Below, one piece after another: positions 45,846 to 62,693 of a stretch of DNA of 64,000 nucleotides (within the stretch, counting starts at the first letter, position 1; each line of letters begins with the position of its first letter). Source of the stretch: Bacteroidia bacterium (GTDB lineage: Bacteria > Bacteroidota > Bacteroidia > NS11-12g > UBA9320); assembly GCA_020053795.1 (NCBI GenBank), contig JAGVMN010000012.1, positions 11,347-75,346 of the forward strand, given 5' to 3'. The notes beneath the pieces were generated by a model, which worked only from the letters and a program-made list of their open reading frames with translations, did not search any database and was not told where the DNA came from. Made by a program: the position numbers and the translations under genes.

Positions 45846-46124
45846 ATGAAAAGAACACGCAGAAAATTCAGTTCGAGTTTCAAGGCAAAAGTTGCCATTG
45901 AAGCTCTAAAAGAGCAAATGACGTTGCAAGAATTGTCATCCAAGTTTGAGGTCCACCCAAATCAGATATCGGCCTGGAAGCAAGAATTTCTAAGCAATGC
46001 ATCAACAGTTTTTGAGTCTAAATCGGTTAAGGGCGATTCAGAGTTGGACAAGGAAAAATTGTACAAGGTCATTGGTGAGCAAAAGGTGGAAATTGATTTT
46101 TTAAAACATGTCTTGGGAAAATGA
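45846..46124 (+). CDS. IS3-family transposase OrfA (HTH)
   Basis: [49 protein letters not shown] plus a leucine-zipper-like tail. Candidate -1 slippery heptamers in frame are T TTT TTA (46097-46103) and G GGA AAA (46115-46121). Confidence 0.85.
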
Positions 46125-46969
46125 GCACGACCGAAAAGAGACAACAGGTAGTGGCATCTCATCCAAGTCTAAGTCTCAAGAAACAATGTGAAGCTTTGGG
46201 GGTACATCGTTCTGGGATGTACTACAAACCACGTGGTCAGAGTGCTTTGAATGAACGGTTGATGAAAGATATAGACCGTTGTTTTCTGGTTCATCCTTAC
46301 TATGGAGTGGCACGAATGACCGATTACCTGAATAGGGACCTGGGTTATAGGGTCAATGAAAAGCGGATAGCCCGATTGTATAGGATCATGAATCTAAATA
46401 CCATTTATGCCCATCCTAAAACTACCCGGAGAGACCCCGATAAATATGTTTATCCCTATCTGCTTAGAAATCTTACTATAGACCACCCAAATCAGGTATG
46501 GCAAACAGACATTACCTATATCCCCATGTTCAGAGGCTTCATGTATCTGGCTGCTATCATAGACGTATATAGTAGAAAGGTACTGGGATGGAGTCTTTCA
46601 AATTCCATGACCACAAAATGGTGTGTAGTACTGCTTAACGACACAATAAACGAACATGGCAAACCCGAAATACATAACTCAGATCAGGGTTCTCAGTACA
46701 CCAGTTCTGACTATATTGAAGTTCTTAAAAAGCATGAAATAAGAATTTCAATGGATGGTAAAGGCAGAGCACTTGACAATGTATATATCGAAAGGTTCTG
46801 GCGTTCTCTCAAACAAGAGAAAATTTATCTCAATCCTCCAAATGGAGGTGTAGATTTGCATCAGAAGGTGAAAGAGTATATTCACTTTTACAATACAGAA
46901 AGACGACACACAGAGATTGGCAAAGTACCACCAGATGAAAAATTTGATGCCAAAAAAATGACAGGATAA
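46121..46969 (+). CDS. IS3-family transposase OrfB (DDE/rve integrase core)
   Basis: DDE triad contexts are [20 protein letters not shown] and [10 protein letters not shown]. OrfB is in the -1 frame relative to orfA. That frame is open upstream to at least 46097, so an OrfAB fusion is possible. Confidence 0.9.
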
Positions 46970-47139: not shown

Positions 47140-48150
47140 ATGACAGAAGAATCTACACCCTTTACCCTCTTTACTTTTACTGCCGACAAGGGGCAGGAAC
47201 CTTTTCGCATTGATAAATTCCTCACGGACCGGATACAGAATGTCACCCGCAACCGCGTGCAGCAGGCCATAGAAGATCAAAAGGTTTTGGTGAACGAACT
47301 TCCAGTGAAATCGAACTACAAAGTAAGACCTGGAGACAAAGTAACGGTTATCAGCTTTGAGGAACCCCGATCTCTGGAAGTGCTGCCCGAAGACATTCCT
47401 TTGGACATTGTCTTTGAGGACGAACATCTTATCATCCTTAACAAACAGGCCGACTTTGTGGTGCATCCCGGTCATGGCAACTATACCGGAACCCTTGTGA
47501 ACGCCCTCGCTCATTATATGGGGGTGGAACCCGAAGGCAGCATCCGTCCATGGCTGGTGCACCGCATAGACAAAGACACCACAGGCCTTATGGTTGTGGC
47601 GAAAAATGAACCCGCCATGGCCAAACTGGCGGTTCAGTTCAAGAACCACAGCATAGAAAGAACTTACAACGCCCTTGTCTGGGGACTTTTCAAAGAGAAG
47701 GAGGGCACCATAGAAGGCAACATCGCCCGAAGCAACCGCGACCGCAAACTTTTTATGGTTTACGACGACGAGGAAATCGGCAAGACAGCCGTGACCCATT
47801 ACAAGGTACTGGAAGAATTCAACTATGTATCGCTGATTGAATGCAAACTCGAAACCGGCAGAACACACCAGATAAGGGTACACATGAAACATGCCGGACA
47901 TACCCTTTTTAATGATGCCTACTACGGCGGTAACAAGATATTGAAGGGAGTGGTTTTCAGCAAGTACAAACAGTTTGTAGAGAATTGTTTTCAGATCATG
48001 CCGCGTCAGGCTTTGCACGCCAAGTCATTGGGATTTGTTCACCCGCACTCAGGCCAATGGGTGCAGTTCGACAGCGAGTTGCCGGAAGATTTTCTTCAGG
48101 TGTTGGAAAAGTGGCGGGCCATCAGCAAGGTATATAATTTTGAAGGGTGA
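47140..48150 (+). CDS. rluD: 23S rRNA pseudouridine synthase, RluA family (RluD-like, with S4 domain)
   Basis: S4-like N-terminus (FRIDKFLTDRIQNVTRNRVQQAIEDQKVLVN). Catalytic motif HRIDKDTTGLMVVAKN. C-terminal GRTHQIRVH. The first ATG is at 47140. Confidence 0.85.
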   Translation: MTEESTPFTLFTFTADKGQEPFRIDKFLTDRIQNVTRNRVQQAIEDQKVLVNELPVKSNYKVRPGDKVTVISFEEPRSLEVLPEDIPLDIVFEDEHLIILNKQADFVVHPGHGNYTGTLVNALAHYMGVEPEGSIRPWLVHRIDKDTTGLMVVAKNEPAMAKLAVQFKNHSIERTYNALVWGLFKEKEGTIEGNIARSNRDRKLFMVYDDEEIGKTAVTHYKVLEEFNYVSLIECKLETGRTHQIRVHMKHAGHTLFNDAYYGGNKILKGVVFSKYKQFVENCFQIMPRQALHAKSLGFVHPHSGQWVQFDSELPEDFLQVLEKWRAISKVYNFEG

Positions 48151-48253
48151 TGGCTGCGGCTTGTTGTCAACGGACTAAAGTCAGCAGTAATAAAACAGAT
48201 TGTAAAAAGTTGTTTCATCCCTATGTGACTTCATTTTTCCCAATCTTTTTTTT

Positions 48254-48304
48254 TACCAATATTTTGTCCCTGCGGGACAGCCTTTTACCAGCAAAATATT
48301 GGTA
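48254..48304. repeat. Composite hairpin element: 13-bp inverted repeat TACCAATATTTTG/CAAAATATTGGTA enclosing GTCCCTGCGGGAC
   Basis: Read directly from the sequence. The outer arms are 48254-48266 and 48292-48304. The inner 5-bp stem GTCCC/GGGAC is at 48266-48278. Confidence 0.85.
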
Positions 48305-48423
48305 TTTGAATTAACGGGTTATGACAAGATCCGGAAAGAACGAATTTTGGTAACAAGGTCAATACAATTTATATGCAAGCCTTGTAATGACGAAATAAGG
48401 GTAGGCGAATTAGCAGATTACCA

Positions 48424-48503
48424 CAAAGTCCCGTAGGGATGAAATATTGTTGGAAAGTTATAATCAGTCACACGAAAGTCCCGTAGGGACGACATATATT
48501 TTA
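48424..48503. repeat. Two direct copies (~50 bp apart) of the same hairpin family in opposite orientation to 48254-48304
   Basis: CACAAAGTCCCGTAGGGATGAAATATTGTTGG starts at ~48422 and CACGAAAGTCCCGTAGGGACGACATATATTTT at ~48471. Their reverse complements match the AATATTT-(G/A)TCCCT(G/A)CGGGAC layout of the first copy. Confidence 0.8.
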
Positions 48504-48576
48504 TTTCCAGTAATTATTATTTGAAATACAACTAAACGCACGATCTGAATAGGTAAAGTTTGGTTATGGTCCATCC

Positions 48577-51500
48577 TCAACGCAGCAACAATACCGTTCC
48601 CTTATCTAATTTTGTAACCGTTTTCCGTCCTTTGAAACTAATGAGGTAAAGATATACCCCGTTTGGACATGGCTTGCCCAGATAGCTGCCATCCCAACCC
48701 TCATCTGGATTTGTGGTATTAAAAACATTTTCGCCCCATCGGTTATAGATCAGCAGTTCATATTGCCTTGCCCCTGCCACCACCGGTTTGAAAATCTCAT
48801 TTCTGTTATTACCATCAGGCGTAAAAGCAGTTGGAACCAGCACAAAGACGGAATCGTTGAGGCAAATTTCTCCTTCCATGGAGTCTATGCAACCCCCAGC
48901 ATTGGAAACCACCAATTTGATACGGTAGCGATTGGTGTCGGCAGCATATCTGTGAGAAGGGTTGGTTAAAGGTTCGTACAGTGCTTTGCTGCCATCACCG
49001 AAATACCATGTTCCGGTGTCAGCACCCTGAGAATAATTGATGATGTTCACTACCGGATCAAAAGGACTCAAACAAATTTCACCATTTGGCACCGTCACAA
49101 AATACGCCTGAATCTTTTCATAACCTGGTATTACGGCAAAGGTATCTAAGCGACAACCTGTGGTAAGATTCAGGATATTTACGAAATATTTGTTTGCTAC
49201 CGGGGCGTTAAGCCTAAAACTGCTGACAGGTGGCGAGGTGTTCCAGATAGCCTGGTATGCATCGCCTATACCGGGAATTACTTCGGCAAACCCCATTTGC
49301 CCGTAACAGGCAATCGGGCTTGTTTGAATTTGGGCAACAACTTTCGGGTTCACCAAAATGTACACCGAGTCGGTGACATCATCCGAACACCCATCACTGA
49401 TGGTTACCCAATAATTTCCGGATGCAGCCGGACTCTGAAATACAATTTTGTTCCTTTGCCCGTCGGACCACAAAAAGGTGTAGTCAAAAACCTGTCCGCC
49501 GCTTCCGGTGGCACTCAGTTGAATATCTTCGCCCAAACAAATGGTATCACGATCGGAAAAAGCATTGACTCTTAACGTATCCCCAACTAAGGTTGAAACA
49601 GAGTCTATTCTGTAACATGTGGGCGTGCCGAACTGGTAATAGGCTTTGTGTGTTCCGGAGCCTGCATTTTTGGGGTTAAAAGTACTTCCGCTGATGCCTT
49701 TTCCCCAATAATTACCACCCGCAGGGGAACCAGTCAAACCATCAAAAGTGTCTTTCAGACAATAGAAAGGGTTTAACCCGGACAAATTCACCACAGGAAG
49801 AGCGGTAACGGTAATTCTGAGAGAGTCTTTGCAACCATTGGCAGAGAAGTAGCTGATCAGATGATTTCCGACCCCTGCGGTAAAAGGCCGGAAAATACCT
49901 TTGGCGGTATCTATGATCCCCTTTCCTTTGAAATAGCCGCCCGCTTGTCCGTTGTAAAACGTGAACTGCGGATCGGTTTGGCAAAAGGTGGTGTCCTTTT
50001 GGATCATGCTTTTTGGATAAACAGTAAAGAAAGTACTGTCGGTACACCCGTTGAAATTATAGATGAGTTTATGCGTACCATAGCCCGCGACACTTGCAGT
50101 AAAAAATCCTCCGGACACACCCGGCCCGCTCCATATTCCGCCGTTCGGTGAATTTTGGACCGTAGCGTTATTCAGAATCAGTGCCGGTTGCTCTATGCAA
50201 AGCCCCATCGTTTTTTTCAATACAACCACTGTTCTCACAAACATGACTTTCTTGGCAGAGCAGCCATTGCTGAAATAAGTAAGGGTATCGTTGGCCACCT
50301 TTCCAAAAAGAGCCGGGTCGTATAACCCAATGGCGGTATCTGCTATGCCTTTACCTTTCCAATAGCCTCCGACCGGTGAACCGGCAGGCAACACAAAAGC
50401 AGCCTGACTGAGACAAATAGTCTGACTGACCCCGGCATTGATATTTTCAACCCGCATAACTACTGTATCTCTGCAGCCATTCATGTTATATACCACTGTT
50501 TTGTTGCCGATTCCCGCCGTAGAAGTTCTAAAAATACCCAGTACGTTGTTGACGATACCTGTGCCGGACCAAATACCGCCGATAGGAGAAAAGCCCAATG
50601 TTATGTCGCCCGCCGAAAGACAAACGGTGTCATCGGCCTGGGTAGAGATAGGTTTGATATTGACTGTTTTATTGGCAACACAGCCATTCCAGCTATATTT
50701 AACAATAAACACCCCGGAAGTATCCGGTGTAAAGCGGCCTAAAGAATCTGTATGTGGGCCGGTCCAAAAGCCGCCTGCAGGCGTATAACCTGTCATCAAA
50801 AAGGAGGCACCTCCCGGACAAGCTGCCGTGGTTCCGCCGGCACTTATACCTCTCACGTTGATGTTCATGGAATCAGAACAACCATTTGAGAAATAAACAA
50901 CTACGTCGTTTCCGGCACCTGCCGTTTGCGGGTTGTAATTTCCGGTGGCCGGATTGGTTATGCCTTTTCCTTTCCAGATTCCTCCGGGTGGGGTTGCCGA
51001 CAAAGTGAATGCCCCCGACGACTGGCAAACCGTGGTGTCATTCGGTGCCTGTGGTTTAGGCAGAACATAGACAGTTATTGAATCAGAACCCGGCACCGCC
51101 ACACCATCGCTAACCGTTAAAATATATTTTGTGGCAACCAGTGGACAAACTTTTTGAGGGCCTTTAACCGGGGGTAAACCATTATTCCATGTGTATACAT
51201 ATTTTGTTGAATCACCGCCCGTAACTATAGCTGTAATGAAAGAACAACCACCAATACAAATCGTATCGGGGTTGGCATCCAGATCAACATATATGGGACA
51301 GTCGGTGACACTGAATGAAACTACTGCAGTCAATATCCACGCAGAATCACAGATATCATATTTCACCGCTCTGAAGTTGATCGTATAAGTACCGCCCCGA
51401 TTAATGCCACCTGATAATTGTAATTCAAAGGAATCAGTCATCCCGGATGGTGCACATCCTATAGGAATGACCTTCGTTACAGAAGGTGCAAATTGGCCGC

Positions 51501-52041
51501 TCAGTCTGAAGGTGGAATCGTTGATCGAGTCACAAAGAAATTTCTGATCAAGTTTGACCCTGAGTACTGATGTACTGCAACTCACCTGCGGTTTGGCTAC
51601 AAATTTCGGATTAGGCAGCGGAAGCACTTTGGTCGTCCAGTTTGCTTCCCACCCGGTGCAGGCTACACTCTTATCAGATTTGAAATAAATGGTGAGACAT
51701 GAGTCGGTAGAGCTAATGGTACCCGGATTGACGGTGCCCGAATATCGTGAACCAATCTTGGAGGCGTTGGTGTCCCGCCCGTCGTAGAATTGCAGATAGT
51801 CAAGATCCTTTTCTGTACAAAATTGCGAAAAGGAAAGGATCACATAATCTCCTCCCGGAACGCAAATCGTGAATATAAAATTTTCGTTGTGATCATAATC
51901 TCCAGTCTTCAATCCTGCATCACTGTCTGTAAAATTCCCTTTGCAGTCATACACCTTATAATTCCCGATCTTGTAGGTATTCTGTCCGAAAACCGTATTA
52001 AACAGGAACAATGTGACAACTAAAAAAAGAATCCTCTTCAT
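48577..52041 (-). CDS. Large adhesin-like protein: N-terminal CUB-like domain, ~8 tandem Ig-like repeats, T9SS type-B C-terminal domain
   Basis: Signal peptide. CUB-like text (NFTDSDAGLKTGDYDHNENFIFTICVPGGDYVILSFSQFCTEKDLDYLQFYDGRD). A repeated ~80-aa unit (...PPGGIWKGKGITNPATGNYNPQTAGAGNDVVVYFSNGCSDS...). C-terminus VPTAFTPDGNNRNEIFKP...YNRWGENVF...WDGSY...NGVYLYLISF. Confidence 0.8.
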   Translation of the reverse strand: MKRILFLVVTLFLFNTVFGQNTYKIGNYKVYDCKGNFTDSDAGLKTGDYDHNENFIFTICVPGGDYVILSFSQFCTEKDLDYLQFYDGRDTNASKIGSRYSGTVNPGTISSTDSCLTIYFKSDKSVACTGWEANWTTKVLPLPNPKFVAKPQVSCSTSVLRVKLDQKFLCDSINDSTFRLSGQFAPSVTKVIPIGCAPSGMTDSFELQLSGGINRGGTYTINFRAVKYDICDSAWILTAVVSFSVTDCPIYVDLDANPDTICIGGCSFITAIVTGGDSTKYVYTWNNGLPPVKGPQKVCPLVATKYILTVSDGVAVPGSDSITVYVLPKPQAPNDTTVCQSSGAFTLSATPPGGIWKGKGITNPATGNYNPQTAGAGNDVVVYFSNGCSDSMNINVRGISAGGTTAACPGGASFLMTGYTPAGGFWTGPHTDSLGRFTPDTSGVFIVKYSWNGCVANKTVNIKPISTQADDTVCLSAGDITLGFSPIGGIWSGTGIVNNVLGIFRTSTAGIGNKTVVYNMNGCRDTVVMRVENINAGVSQTICLSQAAFVLPAGSPVGGYWKGKGIADTAIGLYDPALFGKVANDTLTYFSNGCSAKKVMFVRTVVVLKKTMGLCIEQPALILNNATVQNSPNGGIWSGPGVSGGFFTASVAGYGTHKLIYNFNGCTDSTFFTVYPKSMIQKDTTFCQTDPQFTFYNGQAGGYFKGKGIIDTAKGIFRPFTAGVGNHLISYFSANGCKDSLRITVTALPVVNLSGLNPFYCLKDTFDGLTGSPAGGNYWGKGISGSTFNPKNAGSGTHKAYYQFGTPTCYRIDSVSTLVGDTLRVNAFSDRDTICLGEDIQLSATGSGGQVFDYTFLWSDGQRNKIVFQSPAASGNYWVTISDGCSDDVTDSVYILVNPKVVAQIQTSPIACYGQMGFAEVIPGIGDAYQAIWNTSPPVSSFRLNAPVANKYFVNILNLTTGCRLDTFAVIPGYEKIQAYFVTVPNGEICLSPFDPVVNIINYSQGADTGTWYFGDGSKALYEPLTNPSHRYAADTNRYRIKLVVSNAGGCIDSMEGEICLNDSVFVLVPTAFTPDGNNRNEIFKPVVAGARQYELLIYNRWGENVFNTTNPDEGWDGSYLGKPCPNGVYLYLISFKGRKTVTKLDKGTVLLLR

Positions 52042-52044
52042 AGA

Positions 52045-52491
52045 CTATCTTCTGGTTATTGTTATCGGATCCGTGACAAATGAATTACTCCAGTTTCCGG
52101 CCCTGTCCTGCATTTTTACGGTAAAATTTGTAGTCTCATCGGCACCACTTCCCAGAAGCCAGGTATTTCGCAGTTGAATGCTGAGTATGCCGTCAATTGG
52201 AATGTTTTTGCCGATTGGGGCTAGTGGCGGTATATAATAAGCATCGGCATTTTTCAAACGGGCATCGTGAACAGAAAGTAAATTGATATCAGGGTTCTTA
52301 TGTCCAAGATCTCCGTCACCATCGCTATAAGTAAACTGAATGATAACAGAATCGGTAAATTCATTCACGATCTTTGGTGAAATGCTTTTGAAAACAATTA
52401 TAGGTACCGGATCAATGTTGATGGGCTCCGGTTCTTTACACGCAGAAATGAAAATAATAAATATCAATGCTCCTTGTAAAATTTCTCTCAT
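52045..52491 (-). CDS. Small lipoprotein (Ig-like, DGDGD calcium-type loop), hypothetical
   Basis: Lipobox FIIFISAC. FTYSDGDGDLG. Lies 3 nt upstream of the adhesin gene and overlaps the upstream gene by 4 nt. Confidence 0.5.
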   Translation of the reverse strand: MREILQGALIFIIFISACKEPEPINIDPVPIIVFKSISPKIVNEFTDSVIIQFTYSDGDGDLGHKNPDINLLSVHDARLKNADAYYIPPLAPIGKNIPIDGILSIQLRNTWLLGSGADETTNFTVKMQDRAGNWSNSFVTDPITITRR

Positions 52492-53444
52492 GGCATTATT
52501 TTTATCGTGTAGTAGCTCTTGGCATTAAACAGGGAGTTATCACTGGGCAATTCAATTACCGGATTCACCCCGTCGCTGATTTTGGTTCTTATCCAAATGA
52601 CATCACCGGGCTTACCGTATGTATTGGGATTGATGGTTACCTTGTGATAGAAGTCAACAAACTCTTTATAAAACCCTTTTTCATTTTTCGGGCTGCCGGC
52701 CAACTGAATCGCAATTTCATTTGCCGGATCAAAAGTATTGGCCAGCAAAGAAAAATTCACTTTCAATGTTCCGATGGAAGTGTTGGGCGTTTTATCATCT
52801 AAAAAGGCAAAATACAAATCGAGATTACTGACCGATGAAGATACATAAACGGGGCTAAAACCTTGGTGAGGAAGCAGGTTTGCCCCGTCATAGGCAAGCA
52901 TGCCATGAAGTTGTGGTGGGAAATCCACGGCAGGCGGGGCATTGCCTTTTATATCTCTGGCTCCGTTATTGATCCAGGTTTTGATGTTCTGAATGTATTC
53001 TTCCTTTTTCGTTGGCCAGTCCGATCCGGGTTCAGTTATCAAAGGCATGATCCCTGAATTGGCATTCAGGTCAATGGTGAGTCTTCTTATGAGCATAGAG
53101 GTGGCCTCATTATCAGGCGTAACCCGGGCAGTAAGCGGGTTGAGTATGTCGTTCTTTATGATGGCCTGATTCACCAAGGTGTTGTAAGAGCTTTCTATAG
53201 TCCTGAAATCCGGTTCAAAATTCCCGTCATGGCAACCACTATTGGCACAAGTCGGTTTGAAAATGTATTTGTGCAATCCGGCAATGGTGTTCGGATCGGG
53301 GCTCTTTATTGTATCGAACACGCCGTTGTATCTATCGTTGTCAGGGTTGTCATAAGGATTTTCAGGTTCATTGTATTTATCGCTCCTGCATGAACCAAAG
53401 AAGATAAGACCGACGGTCGTTAATATGTTTAGTATCTGTTTCAT
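52488..53444 (-). CDS. Lipoprotein with PSCyt (planctomycete cytochrome-c-like) type N-terminal domain, CX4CH variant
   Basis: Lipobox LIFFGSC. IFKPTCANSGCHDG...SYNTLVNQ...VTPDNEATSMLIRRL...GIMPL...IQNIKTWINNGA follows the PSCyt layout (C..CH, vpG..e.S.l, MP, WI..GA). Confidence 0.5.
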   Translation of the reverse strand: MKQILNILTTVGLIFFGSCRSDKYNEPENPYDNPDNDRYNGVFDTIKSPDPNTIAGLHKYIFKPTCANSGCHDGNFEPDFRTIESSYNTLVNQAIIKNDILNPLTARVTPDNEATSMLIRRLTIDLNANSGIMPLITEPGSDWPTKKEEYIQNIKTWINNGARDIKGNAPPAVDFPPQLHGMLAYDGANLLPHQGFSPVYVSSSVSNLDLYFAFLDDKTPNTSIGTLKVNFSLLANTFDPANEIAIQLAGSPKNEKGFYKEFVDFYHKVTINPNTYGKPGDVIWIRTKISDGVNPVIELPSDNSLFNAKSYYTIKIMP

Positions 53445-54791
53445 TTACATTCTGTCAAATAAAGAACGACTGTTGGCATCAACGAATCCATAATTCAAAA
53501 TATCATCTTTAATCCCGAATATTTCACCTATGGTCAGCACATTATCCGTGGCCAGTCCGACCGTGTCGGTATCAGATCCTACTTTGAGATTGACCGGAAT
53601 ATTTGGTCCAACCATAGCGGTAAAAATTCTTTGTGTATTCAAATCACCGCTATGATCAAACGACAACCAGTCGTTTTGATCCTTTATTGGATTTGGGTTC
53701 AGATTTCGGCCACATTCTGGAGTAGCAATCATAATTGTCTTCCCTGACATTTCAGGAATTTGTGTCTGTATATAATTCCAGAGAAAACCTGTAGCATGAT
53801 CCGCCCTGTGCAACGAACGCAGATAGCCGGTGAAATTTGAATGGCAACCATCAACACTACTCATGTTGACAACCAAAACCTTTGGTTTAAACCATTTGAG
53901 AACCTCTGCCGCATAAGCCACTGTGTTCAAATCGCCGTTGTCGTTGACAGGCGGAGATGCAATTTGTCCTGTTTTTTGTCGTTGAAAAATGCTTCTTACA
54001 AATTCTTTGAGGTTGTTTTTCTCTTCCTCTGTGTTCTTGATATTGGGGATCTCCCCATTCTTCACCCTGAATACATTGTCAAGAAATTCTTTCATCCGGT
54101 ACATGGGTTCCAATTCTTCCTGAGGGTGGTAAACTTTGGCATTCGACAACACATCACGCCCCGTACTTCCGAAGGTGATACCCGGTGCAAAGAAATTGGC
54201 TCCATAATCCAAACCGTAAGCCGAATGGTTACTTGAGTTCAGAAGTGGCGTTGAATTGCCGATACCATTGCCAATAAACCAGACATCTGTGGCTTTGAAA
54301 CCGCGATGGCGACGAATGTATTCAAATATCGTCGGGTACTGGGGTCTCACCTTCAGGCCTTGTGTAGCAGCTCTTTGTCCCGTAAGCAAGGAAGTCAAGC
54401 CGCCATAGTGGCCTCCATTCACAGCTCGCACCTCCGGAAACAGTGTTCCCTGTCGTTCCAGTGTGTTGCCCAGTATTTTCGGAATAGGCTGTATGCCATC
54501 CGGTTGTCCGGCCAGATTGGTTCCATAAACTATTTTTCCTGCCGGAGGCGTTCCTTCCAACATGTTATACATGATGTTACCGTTAAAGGTCGCCTTTTGG
54601 CTATCATCAAGATATCGTTGAAGAATACTCTCCTGCTGCCTGACTCCTCCGGCGAACAGTACATAAACGACGTGGTCGGCTAATGGTGTTCCGGTCTTGG
54701 CAAATAATCTGCCCGATGGCAATAAATATGGGAAGGTAAATGTACCTGCTGCAATCGTAGCTGTTTTTTGAATAAATTCTCTTCTCTTCAT
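53445..54791 (-). CDS. Tat-signal DUF1501-like protein (alkaline-phosphatase/sulfatase superfamily)
   Basis: Twin-arginine motif MKRREFIQKTATIAAGTF. C-terminal PECGRNLNPN...FDHSGD resembles the DUF1501 EFGR...N...DH block. The start is taken at Met 54791; the track ORF extends to 54836. Confidence 0.6.
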   Translation of the reverse strand: MKRREFIQKTATIAAGTFTFPYLLPSGRLFAKTGTPLADHVVYVLFAGGVRQQESILQRYLDDSQKATFNGNIMYNMLEGTPPAGKIVYGTNLAGQPDGIQPIPKILGNTLERQGTLFPEVRAVNGGHYGGLTSLLTGQRAATQGLKVRPQYPTIFEYIRRHRGFKATDVWFIGNGIGNSTPLLNSSNHSAYGLDYGANFFAPGITFGSTGRDVLSNAKVYHPQEELEPMYRMKEFLDNVFRVKNGEIPNIKNTEEEKNNLKEFVRSIFQRQKTGQIASPPVNDNGDLNTVAYAAEVLKWFKPKVLVVNMSSVDGCHSNFTGYLRSLHRADHATGFLWNYIQTQIPEMSGKTIMIATPECGRNLNPNPIKDQNDWLSFDHSGDLNTQRIFTAMVGPNIPVNLKVGSDTDTVGLATDNVLTIGEIFGIKDDILNYGFVDANSRSLFDRM

Positions 54792-54804
54792 AACGTGCCT
54801 TGTT

Positions 54805-55377
54805 TTAATAAAACCTGTACTCCTCCGAGGCGGCAAATGCTGTATAAATCAATTCAACGGTGATGTTTGGGTGGGCGTCCAGAAAATTCCTGAAGAAAGT
54901 AAGTTCCAACTCTGATGGATCTCTGACATAAAATCTTCGGTAAGTGTCTTTCATAAAGGCATCCACATCGGCCCGCATCAGCGAGTCGGACGGAAGCTTT
55001 TTGTCCGGAGAATTCATGTAATTGCTGATGATGATTTCATAGGCCAATGACCTGTCGCCAATAGAATAAATGACGTTTTCTGTTTTCACCAGTTCATTCA
55101 CAGAAATGGGCTTCTGTATAATGTTGGTTGAAAGTATGGAAATATACTGGGCATCGTTTTTCTGCTTTCCTTTTTTGATGTATTGGCTGTTTACAGGTTC
55201 ATCAAGCACTCCGTAGTTTGTAACATAGTCCTTCTTACAGGCGTCCAGTCCGATAAGCAATGTCGCAATAAGTAAGAATCCTGTTTTACTCTTAAACGAG
55301 TATTGATTTTTTTGGATCCGTCCCGATGGATATCGGGAGTTATGGGATTCGTGAATTTTCGATTTCATAACCTTCAT
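54805..55377 (-). CDS. Lipoprotein, hypothetical (DUF1549/DUF1553-like helical motif)
   Basis: Lipobox LLIGLDAC. C-terminal YRRFYVRDPSELELTFFRNFLD...AFAASEEYRFY. The start abuts the stop of the upstream gene. Confidence 0.45.
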   Translation of the reverse strand: MKVMKSKIHESHNSRYPSGRIQKNQYSFKSKTGFLLIATLLIGLDACKKDYVTNYGVLDEPVNSQYIKKGKQKNDAQYISILSTNIIQKPISVNELVKTENVIYSIGDRSLAYEIIISNYMNSPDKKLPSDSLMRADVDAFMKDTYRRFYVRDPSELELTFFRNFLDAHPNITVELIYTAFAASEEYRFY

Positions 55378-56313
55378 TTAAAAATTGGCATACTCATCTA
55401 AGACCGCAATTTTTCTTTGTAAATATTGCAGGTCATTTGTGGCGTAATAATGTTCGAAATGGGTATAAGTTTCTTCCGTAGTGGGTTCTCTTCCGATGAG
55501 GTTCAGATAAGTCCATTTGATAATGCCTTCATAAAATTCCCTTGAAGAAGTTAAAGTAACACAGTATTCTCTTTTGTTAGAGGCATAACCGCCGAGTATT
55601 TTTCCCATTTTATTGGTTTCAATGATGCCGAAAGCACTCTCGAACTCCGCTTGTGTTGGGAAACGATAGAACAAATCATCAAAACTGGCCCTCACAAAAT
55701 TAAAAGTGTTCATATTGATGATATCGTAAACACTATTGTCGAGCATTCGTGAAAACATTTCGTTGATGCCGATGGTACCATCGCGGTAATGAATTCTCGA
55801 TTCAACCACTTTTAAATGTCTTTCTATTTGTTCCAATGCCTGAAAGACCCCTATGGAGTCACCGTTGAGCCGGGCTACATTAAGTGAAAACTGGGCAAGT
55901 CCTGCGTATCTGGTAAACTCTCCATCGGCAGCTCCTTCACAAAGTCTGGCCTTCACCATGTCATAAATTCTTTGGTAATAGGCTTGCTTATACGAACCTT
56001 CTCCTGGAACGGGAGTGGTATCATTTTGTAACCGAAAAATCAAATCCTCTCGTGCCGCTCTAGAAAGTTTTTTCGATTTCATCAGGCTAACCTCTGTGTT
56101 CATTTCTACTATGGTTGGAACCCTGCCCAAAAAATCTATGTATAGTCTGTTTACATAATTCTCTATTTTCACCGTGGGAACACTTCCCGGATCCAAAGCC
56201 GAATTATCCGGAAACCGCTTTTCTTCCTGCTTGGTGCAGGCGGGAAAAATTACTGCACAGCTAAGGAACAACATGGCCCCAAACAAATTTTTGGTACACA
56301 ATTTTGCAATCAT
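55378..56313 (-). CDS. Lipoprotein, hypothetical (two LGR-x-PT-x-x-E helical motifs, DUF1549/DUF1553-like)
   Basis: Lipobox AVIFPAC. YIDFLGRVPTIVEMNTEV and YLNLIGREPTTEETYTHFEHYY...LDEYANF. The start is taken at Met 56313. Confidence 0.45.
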   Translation of the reverse strand: MIAKLCTKNLFGAMLFLSCAVIFPACTKQEEKRFPDNSALDPGSVPTVKIENYVNRLYIDFLGRVPTIVEMNTEVSLMKSKKLSRAAREDLIFRLQNDTTPVPGEGSYKQAYYQRIYDMVKARLCEGAADGEFTRYAGLAQFSLNVARLNGDSIGVFQALEQIERHLKVVESRIHYRDGTIGINEMFSRMLDNSVYDIINMNTFNFVRASFDDLFYRFPTQAEFESAFGIIETNKMGKILGGYASNKREYCVTLTSSREFYEGIIKWTYLNLIGREPTTEETYTHFEHYYATNDLQYLQRKIAVLDEYANF

Positions 56314-56529
56314 AAGAAAGTATAAATATAGCAGTTTAAAATTCAAATGTAGGAAATTAAAATGATAATACAAATCTGACTAATATTGATATGGTCTAAT
56401 TTCCAATAAATTGGTTGCATTGTTCGCGTTTTTCACTTTTAGAAAAGACAAATGACAAAAGGGGTTTTATTTTCTAATGATTTGAGAATGTGCTTGAAAA
56501 GATCACACCCAAAGAAATTGTAACTGAAA

Positions 56530-56898
56530 TTATTTTCTGAAAATAAAATAGACAGCCAGAATCAGGCATACAAAACCGGCAAAGTGATTCCACCTGAGGG
56601 TCTCGTTTTTGAAAAAGAGGAGGGTGAACAAAACAAAAACTACCAATGTTATGATCTCCTGTATCACTTTGAGTTCCACCAAACTAAAGGGACCGCCATT
56701 CTCTTTAAATCCGATTCTATTGGCCGGAACCTGAAAACAATACTCGAACAAGGCAATTCCCCAACTGATCAGCACAATTGAAATGAGCCCGAGATTCTCA
56801 AACCATTTCAAATCCTTAAACCGAAGATGGCCATACCAGGCCAGGGTCATAAATGTATTGGAAAGAACGAGCAGGCCTATGGTGTAGAAAGCTTTCAT
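56530..56898 (-). CDS. DMT-superfamily small membrane protein (DUF486)
   Basis: 122 aa with 4 TM helices. The N-terminus LSNTFMTLAWYGHLRFK is the DUF486 signature. Confidence 0.75.
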   Translation of the reverse strand: MKAFYTIGLLVLSNTFMTLAWYGHLRFKDLKWFENLGLISIVLISWGIALFEYCFQVPANRIGFKENGGPFSLVELKVIQEIITLVVFVLFTLLFFKNETLRWNHFAGFVCLILAVYFIFRK

Positions 56899-57080
56899 AA
56901 TATTTTCCTTCGTGTTGTAAAGGATTCGAAATTACTTTTTTGGATGAAATAATGCCTGAATAGACTGCGACTTATTGATTGACCACTTGGATTGACATGA
57001 AAAAAACTATTTTCGTCCTGTACGGTTAATTTGCTGAAATATCAGAAATCCAAATGGAGGTCTATCACGTATATGGCGAT

Positions 57081-57653
57081 ATGAAACAAGTAATAACAAT
57101 CGTATCAACCAGTTTTTTGATGATCCTCAGTGCCTGCGGTCAGGGGAATTATAGCAGCCAAAAGGCAACAACAACAGATTCGATCACCCAAAAACCAAAC
57201 CTTATGAAATCAAAAACCAAACCCGATTCGGCGGAAATGAACAAACTACGGAGTGAAGTAAAAGACGGAAAAACGAAAACCTTCAATCAACTGACAGAAT
57301 TTGAAAAATCAGTCATAGAGCAGAAAGGTACAGAAAGAGCCTATACCGGAGAGTATTATGACCACAAAGGAACAGGGGTGTATGTTTGTCGTAAGTGTGA
57401 TGCTCCGCTCTATTATTCTTCCGACAAGTTCGATTCGCATTGCGGATGGCCGAGTTTCGATGATGAAATAAAAGGGGCCGTAAGAAGGCAAACGGATATT
57501 GACGGTCATCGGATAGAGATTATCTGCAACAATTGTCAGGGTCATTTGGGACATGTTTTTTCAGGTGAGGGCTTTACACCGAAAGACACCCGCCATTGTG
57601 TGAACAGCGTTTCCATCAAATTCATACCTTATGAAAAATCCGATGGCCAATAA
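57081..57653 (+). CDS. msrB: Peptide-methionine (R)-S-oxide reductase MsrB, exported lipoprotein form
   Basis: Lipobox MILSAC. Zinc CxxC pairs (CRKCDAPL, CNNCQGHLGHVF). Catalytic RHCVNS. Confidence 0.9.
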   Translation: MKQVITIVSTSFLMILSACGQGNYSSQKATTTDSITQKPNLMKSKTKPDSAEMNKLRSEVKDGKTKTFNQLTEFEKSVIEQKGTERAYTGEYYDHKGTGVYVCRKCDAPLYYSSDKFDSHCGWPSFDDEIKGAVRRQTDIDGHRIEIICNNCQGHLGHVFSGEGFTPKDTRHCVNSVSIKFIPYEKSDGQ

Positions 57654-58299
57654 ATTCTTTTTTACCCTACTTTTGGGTCTTGGAGTTTTGTCTTCCTGTC
57701 CCCAGAACAAAAGTCAAAACCAGAACGTGAATAATGAAACGAACAACATGACAGATACAACAATTCGGACAGATACTGCCACCTTCGGAGCCGGATGCTT
57801 CTGGTGCGTTGAGGCTATTTATCAGGGCATTAAAGGGGTTCTAAAAGTAGAATCTGGATATGCTGGAGGGCACGTTAAAAAACCGACTTACAACGAAGTT
57901 TGTTCCGGCAAAACCGGGCATGCCGAGGTAGCAAGAATTGTTTTCGATCCGGCGGTCATCTCATACGACTTGCTTTTGGAAGTTTTCTGGCACAGCCACG
58001 ACCCGACAACCCTGAACAGGCAGGGAGCTGATGTGGGTGATCAATACCGTTCGGTAATCTTTTATCACAGCGATGCTCAGAAAAAAACCGCCGAAGCCTC
58101 CTTAAAGAAAACCGATGCCGGACATCTCTGGGCCGACCCGATTGTGACAAGCATAGTGCCTTTGAACAACTATTACCCCGCCGAAGACTACCACCAAAAC
58201 TACTTTGCCCAAAACCCGGACAAAGGGTATTGCTCTGCGGTGATAGCTCCCAAAGTTGCCAAGTTCAGGAAGGAGTTTAAGCATCTGCTGAAGGATTGA
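57631..58299 (+). CDS. msrA: Peptide-methionine (S)-S-oxide reductase MsrA, exported lipoprotein form
   Basis: Lipobox VLSSC. Catalytic GAGCFWCVEA. GYAGG...PTYNEVCSGKTGHAEV. Overlaps msrB by 23 nt. Confidence 0.9.
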   Translation: MKNPMANKFFFTLLLGLGVLSSCPQNKSQNQNVNNETNNMTDTTIRTDTATFGAGCFWCVEAIYQGIKGVLKVESGYAGGHVKKPTYNEVCSGKTGHAEVARIVFDPAVISYDLLLEVFWHSHDPTTLNRQGADVGDQYRSVIFYHSDAQKKTAEASLKKTDAGHLWADPIVTSIVPLNNYYPAEDYHQNYFAQNPDKGYCSAVIAPKVAKFRKEFKHLLKD

Positions 58300-59501: not shown

Positions 59502-62500
59502 ATGACAAAACATCGGGACGATCTTATCAGGAATTACCTCCAAAAGGTTAAAGCGGCGAACAAGGAGCTAACCAAGAAGGAGGCATTCAAAGATTTGTTG
59601 AATCGCTTGTACTCCGGTGAAAAGGAAATTGAAAAAATAATTGATGCCATTAGTGCCGGAGCCGAAAAAACCATCATCAACATTCCAAGGAGAGATAAGC
59701 TTCATAAAGGAAGTGCAGATACACTTTACAACAAGATCATTATTGAATTTGAGAATGACCTTAAGGTTACTCTTAAACATGCCAAAGAACAATTGGCGGG
59801 GTATCTTCTTGGCGAATTCAATTCTGGTGAAGGATATAACTTCACACTCATTGTTTCAGATTTTATCACCTGGAAGGTATTTGCACCAGAGGTGTCCCAA
59901 CTCGAAAATTTGAAAAATCTGAAAGAAGATGAATTGATATTGAATGAAGTCAAGGGTTCATCAATGGTTCTTAACGAGCATAACTCCGAAAACTTTTACT
60001 ATTGGATAGACCGCTACCTTTTCAAAGAACAAAAGCAAAGGGCTACACTCAAAAGAATTGAAGAATCTTTTGGATACCAGAGTCCGGTTTTCATAGAGTC
60101 TTTTTTGGAATTGACGAAGCATTTCAATGAGGTTAAGAAGTTTGGCGAAGTGCAGGTTTCCTATGAGCAATGGAAAAAATTCCTTTCCATCGCTTATGGT
60201 TCTTTTGATGCCGGAGAAAACAACTTTCTCATTCATACCTATCTCAGTGTTTTTTCTAAAATTCTGGCTTACGCCGTTGTCAGCAATGACGATTATATTG
60301 ACGATGACGAACTAAAAGGCATCATTAGCGGCAGCATCTTCCACAAATACAATATCCAGAATTTCGTTGACAACGATTTCTTTCACTGGATTGGCAGTGA
60401 GAGAAATTTCAGGGGATTGAAAAAGGTTTTTCGCCTCATTGCACAGGAAATTTCGGCATACGATTTCGAAAATGTTGATGAAGATATTTTGAAAGGAGTC
60501 TATCAGGAATTGATAGACCTTGACACAAGGCATACTTTAGGTGAATATTATACCCCCGACTGGCTTTGTGAACGAATTGTAAACGCGTTCCAGTTTAAGG
60601 CAACAGACAAATTCTTAGACCCTTCCTGCGGTAGTGGCTCGATTCTTAGGGCTATCATACACCGAACCAAACAGCTAAATCCAAATATTTCTGCGGCGGA
60701 ATTGTGCAACAACATTTACGGAATTGACATTCACCCTTTGAGTGTTCAGATTGCAAAAACAACGATCCTTCTTACTTTGGGAAAAGAGATAACTCAGGCA
60801 AAAAAACCGATCCACATTAACATCATTTTGGCCAACACGCTGCTTGCCCCCGATGGTGTCAAAAATCTGTTCGGAGGTGAGTTCACCATCCATATTGACA
60901 AAGAAAAACTCTTTCTCAATACACAGGTGTTTGAAGATGTACAATTGTTTGACGAGGCCATTGAAGTGTGTGAAGATTTGGCCGAACAGACCATGCACAA
61001 GAAAAAGGAAAGCAGGCAAACCTTTGAAAACAATCTGCGGTGTCGCTATAAGAACGGGGGATTGAATCCGCAGGTGATGGACAGTTTCTATAAAATCTAT
61101 GAATCCCTCAAATCAGTGAAGGAAAAAGGGCGGGACAGTATTTGGAAGTTCATCGTCCAGAACCTTTACAAGCCCTATTTCTTAAATAAGAAGTTTGACT
61201 ATGTGGTTGGTAATCCGCCCTGGTTCACTTTCAGCTCAATCAGAAATGAAGAGTATCAAAACCTTCTCAATGGCCTGGCAGAGAAATATGATGTGAAGCC
61301 GGACAGGGTGGCCAATTTTCCCCACCTTGAAATTGCAGCCATTTTCATGAGTTATTGCAGCAGCTATTTCTTAAAGGAGAATGGAAGGTTAGCGTTTGTT
61401 TTACCAAGGAGCTTCTTCAGTGCCGACCACCATGAAAACACCCGGAGTGGGAAAGCAAAAGGTTTTCGCCTCACTGAAATTTGGGATTTGATGGACGTAT
61501 CGCCTTTGTTTAGAGTGCCGAGTTGCGTGTTGTTTGCCGAAAAAGCAGAAAATAAAAGAGCCATGCCCCTAACTGGAATTGAAGGAATTTCTTTTACCGG
61601 AAATTTGCCTGCACACAACTGCAATCTGCAGGCGGCTACACCCAAACTTACCGAAGATTCGCATAAATGGTATTACATCAGGCAAGGCAAATCCTCGGCA
61701 TTCTCTATGCGTAAGGACAAAGCACTGAAAGGAGTCAATCCATACAGAAAACTTTTCAAACAGGGGGCAACCATAGTTCCCCGTGCTTTTTATTTTGTTG
61801 AACTCAATCAGGAAACTCCACCTGATTTTGAAGAAAGGATCATAAACGTCAAAACATCTTTAGAACTTAACGGAGATGCTAAAGCTCCCTGGAAAGGACT
61901 TGACTTTGAAGCGAGGATAGAAAGCAATTTTATTTTTCGGACATTACTTGCAAAGAGCATTCTGCCTTTTGCATTGTACAAACCCAGTTTAGTTGTGCTC
62001 CCAATAACGATTGAGACAAGTAAGGAAAAAGGGAAAGAAATAAAACTTCACTCACCAGATGAACTTAGAGGTAAAGGATACGGGTTTGCTTCAAAGTGGT
62101 TTGCAGATAAAGAAAATATTTGGACGTACAATAGAACTGCAAAGAACAAAAATATTTCTTCTGAAAATTATTTGAACTGGCATAACAAATTAACCGACCA
62201 AAATTTAAATGCACAATATCTTGTACTTTACAACTCATCAGCAAAAGATGCTAACGCAGTTGTAGTTGATAGAAGATTCATTGATTTTGAAAAAGAATAT
62301 TCGAAGTTAGAATTTATGGTTGAAAGTGTAACTTACGTTTTTTATACTTACGATGCAAGAGAAGCTCACTACTTAACAGCAATTCTTAATTCAACAACTC
62401 CAAACCTAATGATGAAAGATTTTCAGGCGAAAGGTTTGTTCGGAGCAAGACATGTTCACAAAAAAATTCTTGACATTTATTTTCCAAAGTTTGACGAGTA

Positions 62501-62693
62501 CGATAAAGTTCACCGCGAGTTGTCATTACAAAGCACATTGGCACATATAAAAAGTAGAGATTTCTTAGAAACCCTTGACACAACAAAGAAAGTCGAGGGA
62601 TTACAATTAGGGAAAATTCGACTGGAAATCAAAAGACATCTGAGCAAAGAGATGGAGGCGATTGACAAATTGGTGAAACAAATTATTGGTTAG
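59502..62693 (+). CDS. Stand-alone large N6-adenine DNA methyltransferase fusion with MmeI-like (type IIG/IIL) architecture
   Basis: N-terminal PD-(D/E)xK-like block (GSADTLYNKIIIEFENDLKVTLKHAKEQLAGYL). Helical spacer. GEYYTPDWLCERIV. SAM motif I LDPSCGSGSIL. Motif IV VVGNPPWFTFS. A ~440-aa C-terminal region is long enough for a target-recognition domain. Confidence 0.7.
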   Translation: MTKHRDDLIRNYLQKVKAANKELTKKEAFKDLLNRLYSGEKEIEKIIDAISAGAEKTIINIPRRDKLHKGSADTLYNKIIIEFENDLKVTLKHAKEQLAGYLLGEFNSGEGYNFTLIVSDFITWKVFAPEVSQLENLKNLKEDELILNEVKGSSMVLNEHNSENFYYWIDRYLFKEQKQRATLKRIEESFGYQSPVFIESFLELTKHFNEVKKFGEVQVSYEQWKKFLSIAYGSFDAGENNFLIHTYLSVFSKILAYAVVSNDDYIDDDELKGIISGSIFHKYNIQNFVDNDFFHWIGSERNFRGLKKVFRLIAQEISAYDFENVDEDILKGVYQELIDLDTRHTLGEYYTPDWLCERIVNAFQFKATDKFLDPSCGSGSILRAIIHRTKQLNPNISAAELCNNIYGIDIHPLSVQIAKTTILLTLGKEITQAKKPIHINIILANTLLAPDGVKNLFGGEFTIHIDKEKLFLNTQVFEDVQLFDEAIEVCEDLAEQTMHKKKESRQTFENNLRCRYKNGGLNPQVMDSFYKIYESLKSVKEKGRDSIWKFIVQNLYKPYFLNKKFDYVVGNPPWFTFSSIRNEEYQNLLNGLAEKYDVKPDRVANFPHLEIAAIFMSYCSSYFLKENGRLAFVLPRSFFSADHHENTRSGKAKGFRLTEIWDLMDVSPLFRVPSCVLFAEKAENKRAMPLTGIEGISFTGNLPAHNCNLQAATPKLTEDSHKWYYIRQGKSSAFSMRKDKALKGVNPYRKLFKQGATIVPRAFYFVELNQETPPDFEERIINVKTSLELNGDAKAPWKGLDFEARIESNFIFRTLLAKSILPFALYKPSLVVLPITIETSKEKGKEIKLHSPDELRGKGYGFASKWFADKENIWTYNRTAKNKNISSENYLNWHNKLTDQNLNAQYLVLYNSSAKDANAVVVDRRFIDFEKEYSKLEFMVESVTYVFYTYDAREAHYLTAILNSTTPNLMMKDFQAKGLFGARHVHKKILDIYFPKFDEYDKVHRELSLQSTLAHIKSRDFLETLDTTKKVEGLQLGKIRLEIKRHLSKEMEAIDKLVKQIIG

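Follow-up and report, generated by a model that had tools for sequence, protein, structure and literature searches.

The window analysed here, a stretch of 64,000 nucleotides from contig JAGVMN010000012.1 of a Bacteroidia bacterium, carries on its minus strand a compact run of six genes, designated A to F, that encode exported proteins and are conserved together in related genomes. The coordinates of the six genes were taken from the list of open reading frames (ORFs) of the window. The genes are given below from A to F, each followed by the features within it, with the two flanking signals last (aa, amino acids; Tat, twin-arginine translocation; T9SS, type IX secretion system).

55378-56313, minus strand: gene A, 311 aa from the ATG at 56313; the longest ORF reaches 56373 (TTG)
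54805-55377, minus strand: gene B, 190 aa, as in the ORF list
53445-54791, minus strand: gene C, 448 aa from MKRREF; the ORF extends to 54836
54693-54791, minus strand: Tat signal region of C, MKRREFIQK and a hydrophobic stretch, aa 1-33
52488-53444, minus strand: gene D, 318 aa, as in the ORF list
53229-53249, minus strand: CX4CH motif of D (C66-A-N-S-G-C71-H72), invariant in 29/29 aligned members
52045-52491, minus strand: gene E, 148 aa, as in the ORF list
48577-52041, minus strand: gene F, 1154 aa, as in the ORF list
51640-51945, minus strand: CUB domain of F, aa 33-134; Pfam PF00431, 43.9 bits against a cut-off of 21.4, E 3.3e-11
49552-51039, minus strand: about seven tandem repeats of F, each of ~70 aa with two Cys and GG-x-W-x-G-x-G-I, aa ~335-830
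48613-48837, minus strand: T9SS type-B sorting domain of F, aa 1069-1143; CHU_C and TIGR04131 above their cut-offs
56344-56374, minus strand: Bacteroidota-type promoter-like site (TTTG, 19 nt, TACATTTG), at 30 nt upstream from the start codon (ATG) of A
48478-48490, minus strand: terminator-like hairpin GTCCCTACGGGAC followed by TTTCG, 87 nt past the stop of F

The five junctions between these genes measure 0 nt (A/B), 13 nt (B/C, 54792-54804), 0 nt (C/D), -4 nt (D/E) and 3 nt (E/F), and all of them match the ORF list, as described in a first-pass annotation of this DNA. The 13-nt gap assumes that C starts at MKRREF. The only in-frame starts of B are ATG 55377 and ATG 55368, and the A/B junction therefore remains tight. 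The Bacteroidota promoter consensus is of the TTTG-19 nt type; the pattern occurs six times in the window against 3.35 expected, which alone is not significant, and the position of the site before A favours ATG 56313 over TTG 56373 as the start of this gene. The six genes may form one transcription unit, a view supported by the conserved abutting or overlapping ORFs, the promoter-like site before A and the hairpin after F, and held, as part of the overall explanation developed below, with slightly less than even confidence. The hairpin after F is also one of three copies of a small palindrome, GTCCCnnnGGGAC, found at 48266-48490 within the 426-nt spacer between F and an rluD-like gene. Two of these copies sit within a 23-nt direct repeat, with a spacing of 50 nt. 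The whole window contains five copies against 0.67 expected, the other two lying at 34929 and 40636, and the palindrome looks like a repetitive extragenic palindromic (REP)-like intergenic element. A simple terminator scan of positions 48000-57000 returned 21 hairpin-plus-T sites against 8.5 +/- 3.0 in shuffled sequence, most of them within the coding sequence of F.

Every product carries an export signal, as first reported: four lipoboxes (FPAC, LDAC, FGSC and ISAC), the twin-arginine sequence RREFIQK in C and a Sec signal on F. The motifs quoted at that stage (CANSGCH, IMPL, WINNGA, LGRVPTIVE and IGREPTTEE) were likewise all found. The lipobox cysteine (C26 of A, C47 of B, C19 of D, C18 of E) is invariant in the family alignments of these four lipoproteins, each of 29-35 orthologues; the lipoprotein calls are based on the lipobox and this residue.

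Conservation of the arrangement was followed by tblastn in 83 loci, made up of 80 species genomes and three metagenome contigs. The 80 species are the best 80 of at least 517 stretches encoding a relative of C in a scan of one genome per species; all are metagenome-assembled genomes (MAGs), labelled Bacteroidia, Flavobacteriales, Saprospiraceae, Chitinophagales or Vicingaceae, and the carriers fetched were nearly all aquatic and soil MAGs. Wherever the contig was long enough, the order and orientation A-B-C-D-E-F were kept, with two exceptions (L024 and L034) in which unrelated sequence lies downstream of D. All six genes are present as complete ORFs in 55 loci, and median gaps between neighbouring genes range from -20 to +9 nt. 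This six-gene arrangement is far beyond chance, and the co-occurrence across Bacteroidota that had been proposed as a check on the single sequence was borne out. No conserved flanking gene was found: the commonest flanking family occurs in 9 of ~80 loci, and a PorP/SprF homologue, TonB receptor, transporter or regulator, each sought as a conserved neighbour, was in no case present in more than 9 of ~80. What is conserved is therefore this set of six genes and no more, set amid varied housekeeping neighbours. A few species have insertions of 0.5-1.8 kb between operon genes, among them L066 and L082 (at E/F) and L051 (between C, D and E). Literature searches returned no functional description of the gene combination, which agrees with the initial impression that none existed.

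Pfam and NCBIfam profiles were scanned against the six window proteins and against each member of the family alignments singly. F is the only one of the six above curated family thresholds; none of A to E passes one, either as the window protein or as any alignment member. Remote relationships were then sought by profile-profile comparison (hhalign) with two sets of DUF1501 sequences. The first is an orphan subfamily, with the PF07394 label precomputed on every listed match and no PSCyt neighbour. The second, from a second scan, consists of 31 DUF1501-like ORFs adjoining PSCyt1/PSCyt2/PSD1 genes; eight ORFs from six of its loci (four PSCyt proteins and four downstream neighbours) were checked with Pfam and validated. 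The hook queries for both scans served solely to retrieve real sequences. Because hhalign E-values near 1e-5 were also reached by unrelated lipoprotein signal peptides, controls were run on domains without signal peptides against reversed and 20 column-permuted decoys.

Protein C is the best conserved of the six, with 57-70% full-length identity across the loci, against 37-57% for A, 39-56% for B, 34-55% for D, 37-54% for E and 32-48% for F. At least 1564 homologues of C were found at E<=1e-3 in a 90%-clustered collection, all of them 'hypothetical' and without a Pfam domain; the best 120 are 59-100% identical to C. Searches of plasmids by tblastn gave only generic alkaline-phosphatase or sulfatase-like genes. 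In the Tat motif, R3 and F6 are invariant and the strict RR.F pattern is kept in 66 of 81 orthologues, and the Pfam TAT_signal model is matched by 3 of 29 members. PDB searches with C, by sequence and by profile, gave no match. The AlphaFold2 (AF2) model of C (predicted local distance difference test, pLDDT, 75.8; predicted TM-score, pTM, 0.81) gave 317 Foldseek matches in the PDB at E<=1e-3; the leading matches, at a probability of 1.0 and TM-scores of 0.4-0.5, include 3lxq, sulfatases, alkaline phosphatases, enzymes of the nucleotide pyrophosphatase/phosphodiesterase (NPP) type and LtaS. The predicted fold of C is that of the alkaline phosphatase superfamily.

The description of C as a Tat-exported, DUF1501-like enzyme holds for its Tat motif, its fold and a set of shared motifs, but not for family membership. 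No DUF1501 (PF07394) match at E<=1 was obtained for the window C, its 29 aligned members or 10 distant relatives, and true DUF1501 proteins scored 494-517 bits in the same scan; the distant relatives gave weak Phosphodiest, Metalloenzyme and Sulfatase matches. By hhalign, C matched the PSCyt-associated DUF1501 set with a probability of 96% (E 4.5e-9), the orphan set with 87% (E 3.8e-6) and three sulfatases with 92.6% (E 4.5e-7); with signal peptides removed, the DUF1501 comparison scored 50.1 against 15.8 for the reversed decoy. A full-length match to an NPP-like protein, P0385, reached a probability of 99.9% (E 7e-37). C is barely closer to DUF1501 than to sulfatases and much closer to P0385, with which the DUF1501 profile itself gave no match. 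C is thus placed in the alkaline phosphatase clan, nearest to an unnamed NPP-like branch, and is not a DUF1501 member. The DUF1501 motif set nevertheless aligns with C column by column (GG/GA, His..TG, D..H, E-F-G-R and D-H), the fourth motif being E-[CH]-G-R in the clade of the window and E-F-G-R in some distant C members; C shares these predicted active-site features, which are derived ones, with DUF1501.

The residues conserved in C are G48-G49-V-R51, H128, D314, H317, E359, C/H360, G361, R362 and H380. In the alignment with P0385, FAGGVR of C stands over TIDGLR, which puts Gly48 at the metal-binding Asp of strand 1, and GGH128Y stands over TTPGHY, which puts H128 on the first Thr. By analogy with the T-x-P-x-H-Y motif of NPP enzymes, this Thr is taken as the probable nucleophile of P0385. 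Further along, VD314GCH317 aligns with VDLSGH, PE359C360GR with TDHGR and DH380 with NH, and a PTIFEY motif is common to both proteins. No conserved Ser, Thr or Cys occupies the nucleophile position in the C alignments. In the AF2 model, H128 just precedes a predicted helix (130-137), and the alkaline-phosphatase fold places the nucleophile just before that helix. Down to 23% identity, D314, H317, G361, R362 and H380 show no exception, and H128 is almost as constant. Most members have Glu at position 359 and a few have Asp; at position 360, 67 of 81 orthologues have Cys and the other 14 have His, and both residues can ligate metals.

Protein D consists of an N-terminal four-helix domain and a C-terminal beta-sandwich (aa 178-317). 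Among the D orthologues in the loci, CX4CH, G-x-M-P and W-[IVL]-x-x-G-A each occur in 74 of 74 and CXXCH in none (0/74). Near-invariant elements in the 29 aligned members are P-[TS]-C-[AS]-N-S-G-C-H-D-G-x-F-E-P-D, R-V-x-P-G...S-M, G-x-M-P and W-[IV]-x-x-G-A. The AF2 model (pLDDT 82.8) places helices of the N-domain at 54-62, 83-92, 117-123 and 143-159; it is confident for the beta-sandwich and of low confidence around the Cys motif. This low confidence near CX4CH may be due to a missing cofactor, and the modelled N-domain would be class-I-cytochrome-like. Searches of the PDB with D by sequence and profile gave no match.

The presence in D of a PSCyt-like domain, proposed from motifs, stands as a remote homology, though with neither a Pfam match nor a CXXCH. 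PSCyt1 (PF07635) gave no match at E<=1 for D or any of its 29 members, and true PSCyt1 domains scored 57-70 bits. With hhalign, aa 45-170 of D matched the PSCyt1 region of 49 validated proteins with a probability of 95.5% (E 1.4e-8, score 50.5); the reversed decoy scored 12.6 and the 20 column-permuted decoys 8.8-14.3. A relaxed alignment sets CANSGCH on CxxCH with a 2-residue gap and leaves vPG..S.L..R, MP and WI..GA collinear. On this profile evidence, D joins a remotely PSCyt1-like N-domain to a beta-sandwich. Judged by its motifs, D could plausibly bind haem, with His72 as proximal and Met133-Pro as distal ligand; small class I cytochromes have a proximal His and a distal Met.

Proteins A and B had been read as parts of a split DUF1549 (PSCyt2) protein. 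A is a helical lipoprotein with the modules LGRVPTIVE, FYRFPTQAEF and IGREPTTEE, and B, also a lipoprotein, has a long N-region of positive charge and a single DUF4214-like module (RFYVRDPSELE ... SEEYRFY). At E<=1, the 35 members of family A matched DUF4214 (25 members), PBS_linker_poly (20), PSCyt2 (16) and PSD1 (3), with best E-values of 1e-8 for PBS_linker_poly, 2.2e-5 for DUF4214 and 1.3e-4 for PSCyt2. The window A itself scored 16.3 bits against DUF4214 (PF13946; cut-off 23.2) and 12.6 bits against PSCyt2/DUF1549 (PF07583; cut-off 29.8), the latter over profile positions 19-63 of a domain of ~209 residues. Against the PDB, the A profile matched phycobilisome linkers alone (ApcE REP domains, E 2.9e-4). 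The hhalign comparison of A with the PSCyt2 region covered ~44 columns around an RR..LDL.GLPPT..E module and scored 45.9 against 11.6-19.8 for decoys. DUF4214 matched 21 of 35 members of family B at E<=1 (best E 3.5e-5) and gave no match with the window B; in hhalign, B showed a weak alignment (E 7e-3) with the corresponding module in the last part of PSD1. At E<=1, no B member matched DUF1501, PSCyt1 or PSCyt2, and the ORF translations of A and B contain no CXXCH. The 'split DUF1549' label is overstated, because neither protein has the second CxxCH of DUF1549; the two have only ~45 residues in common with that family. Both are better described, on their sequences, as probable helical lipoproteins of widespread, DUF4214/phycobilisome-linker-like LGR/PT..E modules. 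As no C, D or B member has a DUF1501, PSCyt1 or PSCyt2 Pfam match, these proteins are not members of those families. In E, the motifs Y-x-D-x-DGDLG and DRAGNWS are conserved, the former looking like a Ca-binding loop; Pfam and NCBIfam scans of its members and PDB searches detected no relative outside its own family.

Protein F is a surface protein with a Sec signal, a CUB domain, the two-Cys repeats, a PKD domain and a T9SS type-B C-terminal domain. Its identification as a CUB protein with a T9SS type-B C-terminus was confirmed, with CUB, CHU_C and TIGR04131 all above curated cut-offs; the sorting domain scored 54.5 bits against CHU_C (PF13585; cut-off 27, E 1.3e-14) and 42.4 against TIGR04131 (cut-off 35, E 5.6e-11). 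In the PDB, the CUB domain matched those of PCPE-1, neuropilin and TSG-6 (E 3e-8 to 1e-5), and it is also recorded for the F orthologue of locus L001. PKD, around aa 1010-1054, reached 24.5 bits, below its cut-off of 27, and the repeats gave no Pfam match.

Versions of the module without F occur in more distant lineages. A profile search with C among 1.84 billion representatives (50% clustering) returned 848 proteins at E<=1e-3. The neighbourhood of one full-length relative among them, P0248 (34% identity to C), on a distant Bacteroidota-like contig (locus L166, GC 34%), reads A-B-C-D-E followed by an unrelated gene on the opposite strand, with F absent; blastp E-values are 2e-28 for A, 8e-22 for B, 5e-73 for C, 5e-29 for D and 3e-34 for E. 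P0296 (26% identity to C) comes from locus L168 (GC 69.5%), a MAG labelled 'Myxococcales bacterium' at NCBI. Its A, B, C and D were found by blastp, the link for A going through the A gene of L171, and its E was assigned solely from where the gene lies, its length and a Y-x-D-x-NGDLG motif (blastp E 1.3). The A-like gene of L168 has a weak precomputed PSCyt2 match. Locus L171, from another high-GC MAG (GC 65%), with P0293 (26% identity to C), has the gene order A-C-B-D, and a JGI contig with P0275 (25% identity) shows the same gene-length pattern. The D-like proteins of L168 (6438-7370) and L171 (7889-8866) carry CAGQPGLCH and CASERGGCH, both CX6CH, and retain H-x-G-x-F-[ES]-P-[DE] after the Cys motif. 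P0385, which keeps the Asp and the Thr, has a gene context other than the A-B-C-D module. Since the L166, L168 and L171 modules are without F, F stands outside the core: the core is A, B, C, D and usually E, with F added in the clade of the window. The coupling of the set to a CUB adhesin therefore applies as co-linearity within that clade and fails in the distant versions.

Two observations concern these distant forms. In the Myxococcales version, three independent contigs (L168 2469-3469, L169 and an ENA contig) have rubrerythrin and DUF3501 genes immediately before the A-like gene and in its orientation, which may hint at a connection with iron or oxidative chemistry. P0356, a 997-aa called protein of high GC, combines LGR-type helices, a C-like enzyme (FAGGVR, NLGHFG..LFTG, ADIAHNSF and LPEFGRD) and four C-terminal CxxCH, and the sequence between these parts has a frameshifted look. 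P0356 is thus a fusion or else the merger of three neighbouring genes, in the order A/B, C, cytochrome.

Several known systems resemble parts of the operon. Studholme 2004 is reportedly among the sources for the PSCyt1/PSCyt2/PSD1 and DUF1501 modules, which occur in Planctomycetes, Verrucomicrobia and Lentisphaerae. Literature searches returned no study on the function of DUF1501, PSCyt, DUF1549 or DUF1553. The modules of the Planctomycetes-Verrucomicrobia-Chlamydiae (PVC) group have been described bioinformatically, and electron transport has been suggested for them (PMC3542564; He 2017, PMC5615132). Four-gene PVC clusters encode a Tat-signal DUF1501 protein, a beta-sandwich protein with a signal peptide, a PSCyt1/Big_2/PSCyt2/PSD1 protein and a PSCyt1/WD40 protein (Kamneva et al. 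2012; PMC3542564), which parallel C, E, A/B and D, respectively. C resembles PVC DUF1501 in its Tat signal, GG at the strand-1 Asp, His before a ..TG helix, E-x-G-R and D-H; D resembles PSCyt1 in its C..CH / vPG..S.L..R / MP / WI..GA domain; A and B share the LGR/PT..E helical modules. Moreover, both systems have beta-sandwich partners and all components are exported. The differences are that the components here are separate lipoproteins, whereas the PVC ones form one protein of ~1000 aa, that CX4CH or CX6CH replaces CXXCH, and that PSCyt2 and PSD1 are missing almost entirely, including the second haem motif (CAQCH) of PSCyt2. There is also no thresholded Pfam match here to DUF1501, PSCyt1 or PSD1, and only a weak PSCyt2 match for A; and the module occurs in Bacteroidota and Myxococcales, with a T9SS CUB protein in the clade of the window.

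Among NPP/Phosphodiest-type enzymes (PF01663, PF01676, PF00884; P0385), [DE]-H-G-R, D..H, D/N-H and PTIFEY are common to C, but P0385 keeps TIDGLR and the Thr nucleophile and has no Tat signal, whereas C has G48 and H128. Most members of families A and B match DUF4214, and 20 of 35 A members match the phycobilisome linker model (PF00427); in contrast to these, A and B are lipid-anchored and belong to a non-photosynthetic lineage, and nothing there corresponds to NxVYDxINMNTFNFVNASFDDLF, a motif strongly conserved in the centre of A. F resembles the large SprB/CHU proteins in its Sec signal, repeated Ig-like modules, PKD and CHU_C/TIGR04131 C-terminal domain, but differs in its N-terminal CUB domain, a steady length of ~1150-1200 aa, strict one-to-one orthologues in a fixed operon and the lack of an adjacent PorP/SprF-like gene.

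The best explanation at present, tentative and falling somewhat short of probable, is that the locus encodes an envelope-tethered complex around a Tat-exported metalloenzyme, possibly served by a haem lipoprotein, as a disaggregated distant relative of the PVC PSCyt/DUF1501 modules. C would be exported folded by Tat and would keep one canonical metal site (D314, H317 and H380). The second site appears rebuilt, with Gly for the strand-1 Asp, His128 for Thr, and E359 and Cys/His360 for Asp-His. Because the nucleophile and the strand-1 Asp are replaced, the covalent-nucleophile mechanism has probably been lost; C would probably act without a covalent phospho- or sulfo-enzyme intermediate and more likely has a His/carboxylate-rich metal centre. 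D probably holds a c-type haem via C-x4-C-H, with Met133-Pro distal, and may pass electrons to or from C; in broader terms, it is a probable partner for electron transfer or metal binding. A and B would be lipid-anchored helical scaffolds keeping C and D at the membrane, with E as a small partner of the Ca-binding beta-sandwich type. F, exported by the T9SS in the clade of the window, would link the periplasmic module to the cell surface, for example for substrate capture. A broader proposal, that A-E represent a cross-phylum class of envelope redox metalloenzymes (Bacteroidota and Myxococcota), sister to PVC PSCyt/DUF1501, combining a His-for-nucleophile enzyme with a C-x(4,6)-C-H lipoprotein cytochrome and connected in many Bacteroidota to a T9SS-exported CUB surface protein, is conceivable but somewhat unlikely.

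A number of points weigh against a redox complex of this kind. To our knowledge, nearly all characterised enzymes of the alkaline phosphatase superfamily are hydrolases, transferases and mutases, not redox enzymes. Haem, metal and activity are predictions only, both for this module and for PSCyt1/DUF1501. The link between A and PSCyt2 spans only ~45 residues, and signal peptides, as well as one pair of unrelated regions, also gave pairwise hhalign E-values of ~1e-4 to 1e-5. That H128 stands at the nucleophile position is read from a profile alignment and predicted secondary structure, not from coordinates. Foldseek with the whole D model, a search dominated by the C-terminal beta-sandwich, found no cytochrome and only weak Ig-like matches, all at E >1e-3. 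Finally, Cys spacing varies from CXXCH in PSCyt1 to CX4CH here and CX6CH in the two high-GC loci; such variation is unusual for haem c, and the residues could instead form a disulfide or another metal site.

Purely hydrolytic nutrient scavenging is, although unlikely, the strongest alternative. C would be a Tat-exported metallo-phosphatase, phosphodiesterase or sulfatase-like enzyme using a metal-bound hydroxide, the Cys-Cys-His of D would be a structural disulfide or metal clip, A, B, D and E would be non-redox substrate-binding or scaffold lipoproteins, and F would capture a polymeric substrate at the surface. The alkaline-phosphatase fold of C, the scores of its nearest relatives against Phosphodiest, Metalloenzyme and Sulfatase, and its one intact metal site all fit, and the variable Cys spacing of D would be more natural in a structural motif than in a haem site. 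Nearly all carriers are aquatic or soil MAGs, and nutrient scavenging is common in such organisms. It fits less well that the nucleophile and its partner Asp are lost family-wide in a site otherwise strongly constrained, that the PSCyt1-like motif set of D is invariant in 74/74 orthologues, and that no transporter, TonB-dependent receptor or regulator is conserved beside the cluster.

It is improbable that C is instead a pseudo-enzyme, serving as a binding or structural subunit of a non-catalytic envelope complex. The D-to-G and T-to-H replacements relative to P0385 would be expected of such a protein, but C, at 58-79% identity, is better conserved than the other five (32-57% full-length identity), little or no variation is seen at H128, D314, H317, E359, R362 and H380 even where overall identity is 25%, position 360 is solely Cys or His, and the Tat signal is kept. 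A role of A-E as accessory factors that secrete, anchor or operate the adhesin F, like sprC, sprD and sprF for sprB in Flavobacterium gliding, is very improbable: F is co-linear with A-E in the 80 nearest species and has a type-B C-terminal domain, whose cargo usually comes with dedicated partners, but A-E occur without F in L166 and L168 (Myxococcales) and A-C-B-D without F in L171, no PorP/SprF-like gene lies in or beside the cluster, and C has an enzyme fold and is Tat-exported.

Other genes of the window surround the operon. Beside it, on the opposite strand, lie adjacent MsrB (SelR) and MsrA (PMSR) genes (57054-58299, plus strand), whose products have signal or lipobox-like N-termini (…MILSAC, …GVLSSC); such N-termini point to exported methionine sulfoxide reductases beside an envelope operon, a neighbourhood that is not conserved in the other loci. 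An IS3-type transposase pair (45846-46969, plus strand) lies ~1.6 kb from the operon end and consists of HTH_Tnp_1 (92 aa) and an rve integrase (282 aa) with a 4-nt overlap at 46121-46124. The window also encodes a 1063-aa protein of the Eco57I/N6_Mtase type (59502-62693, plus strand), a type IIG-like restriction-modification enzyme, and a 1310-aa protein of WG_beta_rep and MORN_2 repeats (40185-44117, minus strand). Rfam and tRNA scans of the window found nothing.

The operon thus comprises five conserved families (A-E) without a Pfam or NCBIfam assignment, in a fixed arrangement across hundreds of environmental Bacteroidota, with a core that reaches Myxococcales. Remote links tie it to DUF1501/PSCyt, which in Planctomycetes and Verrucomicrobia rank with the largest gene families lacking an explanation. 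The components here are small, separate and single-copy, so that expression, deletion and crystallisation should be far simpler than with their PVC counterparts. In C, the altered active site, with no nucleophile and a His-rich second metal site, suggests an undescribed chemistry for the alkaline phosphatase fold. If the proposal of an envelope redox complex is true, solving the operon would offer a first way into what the hundreds of DUF1501/PSCyt paralogues in Planctomycetes do.

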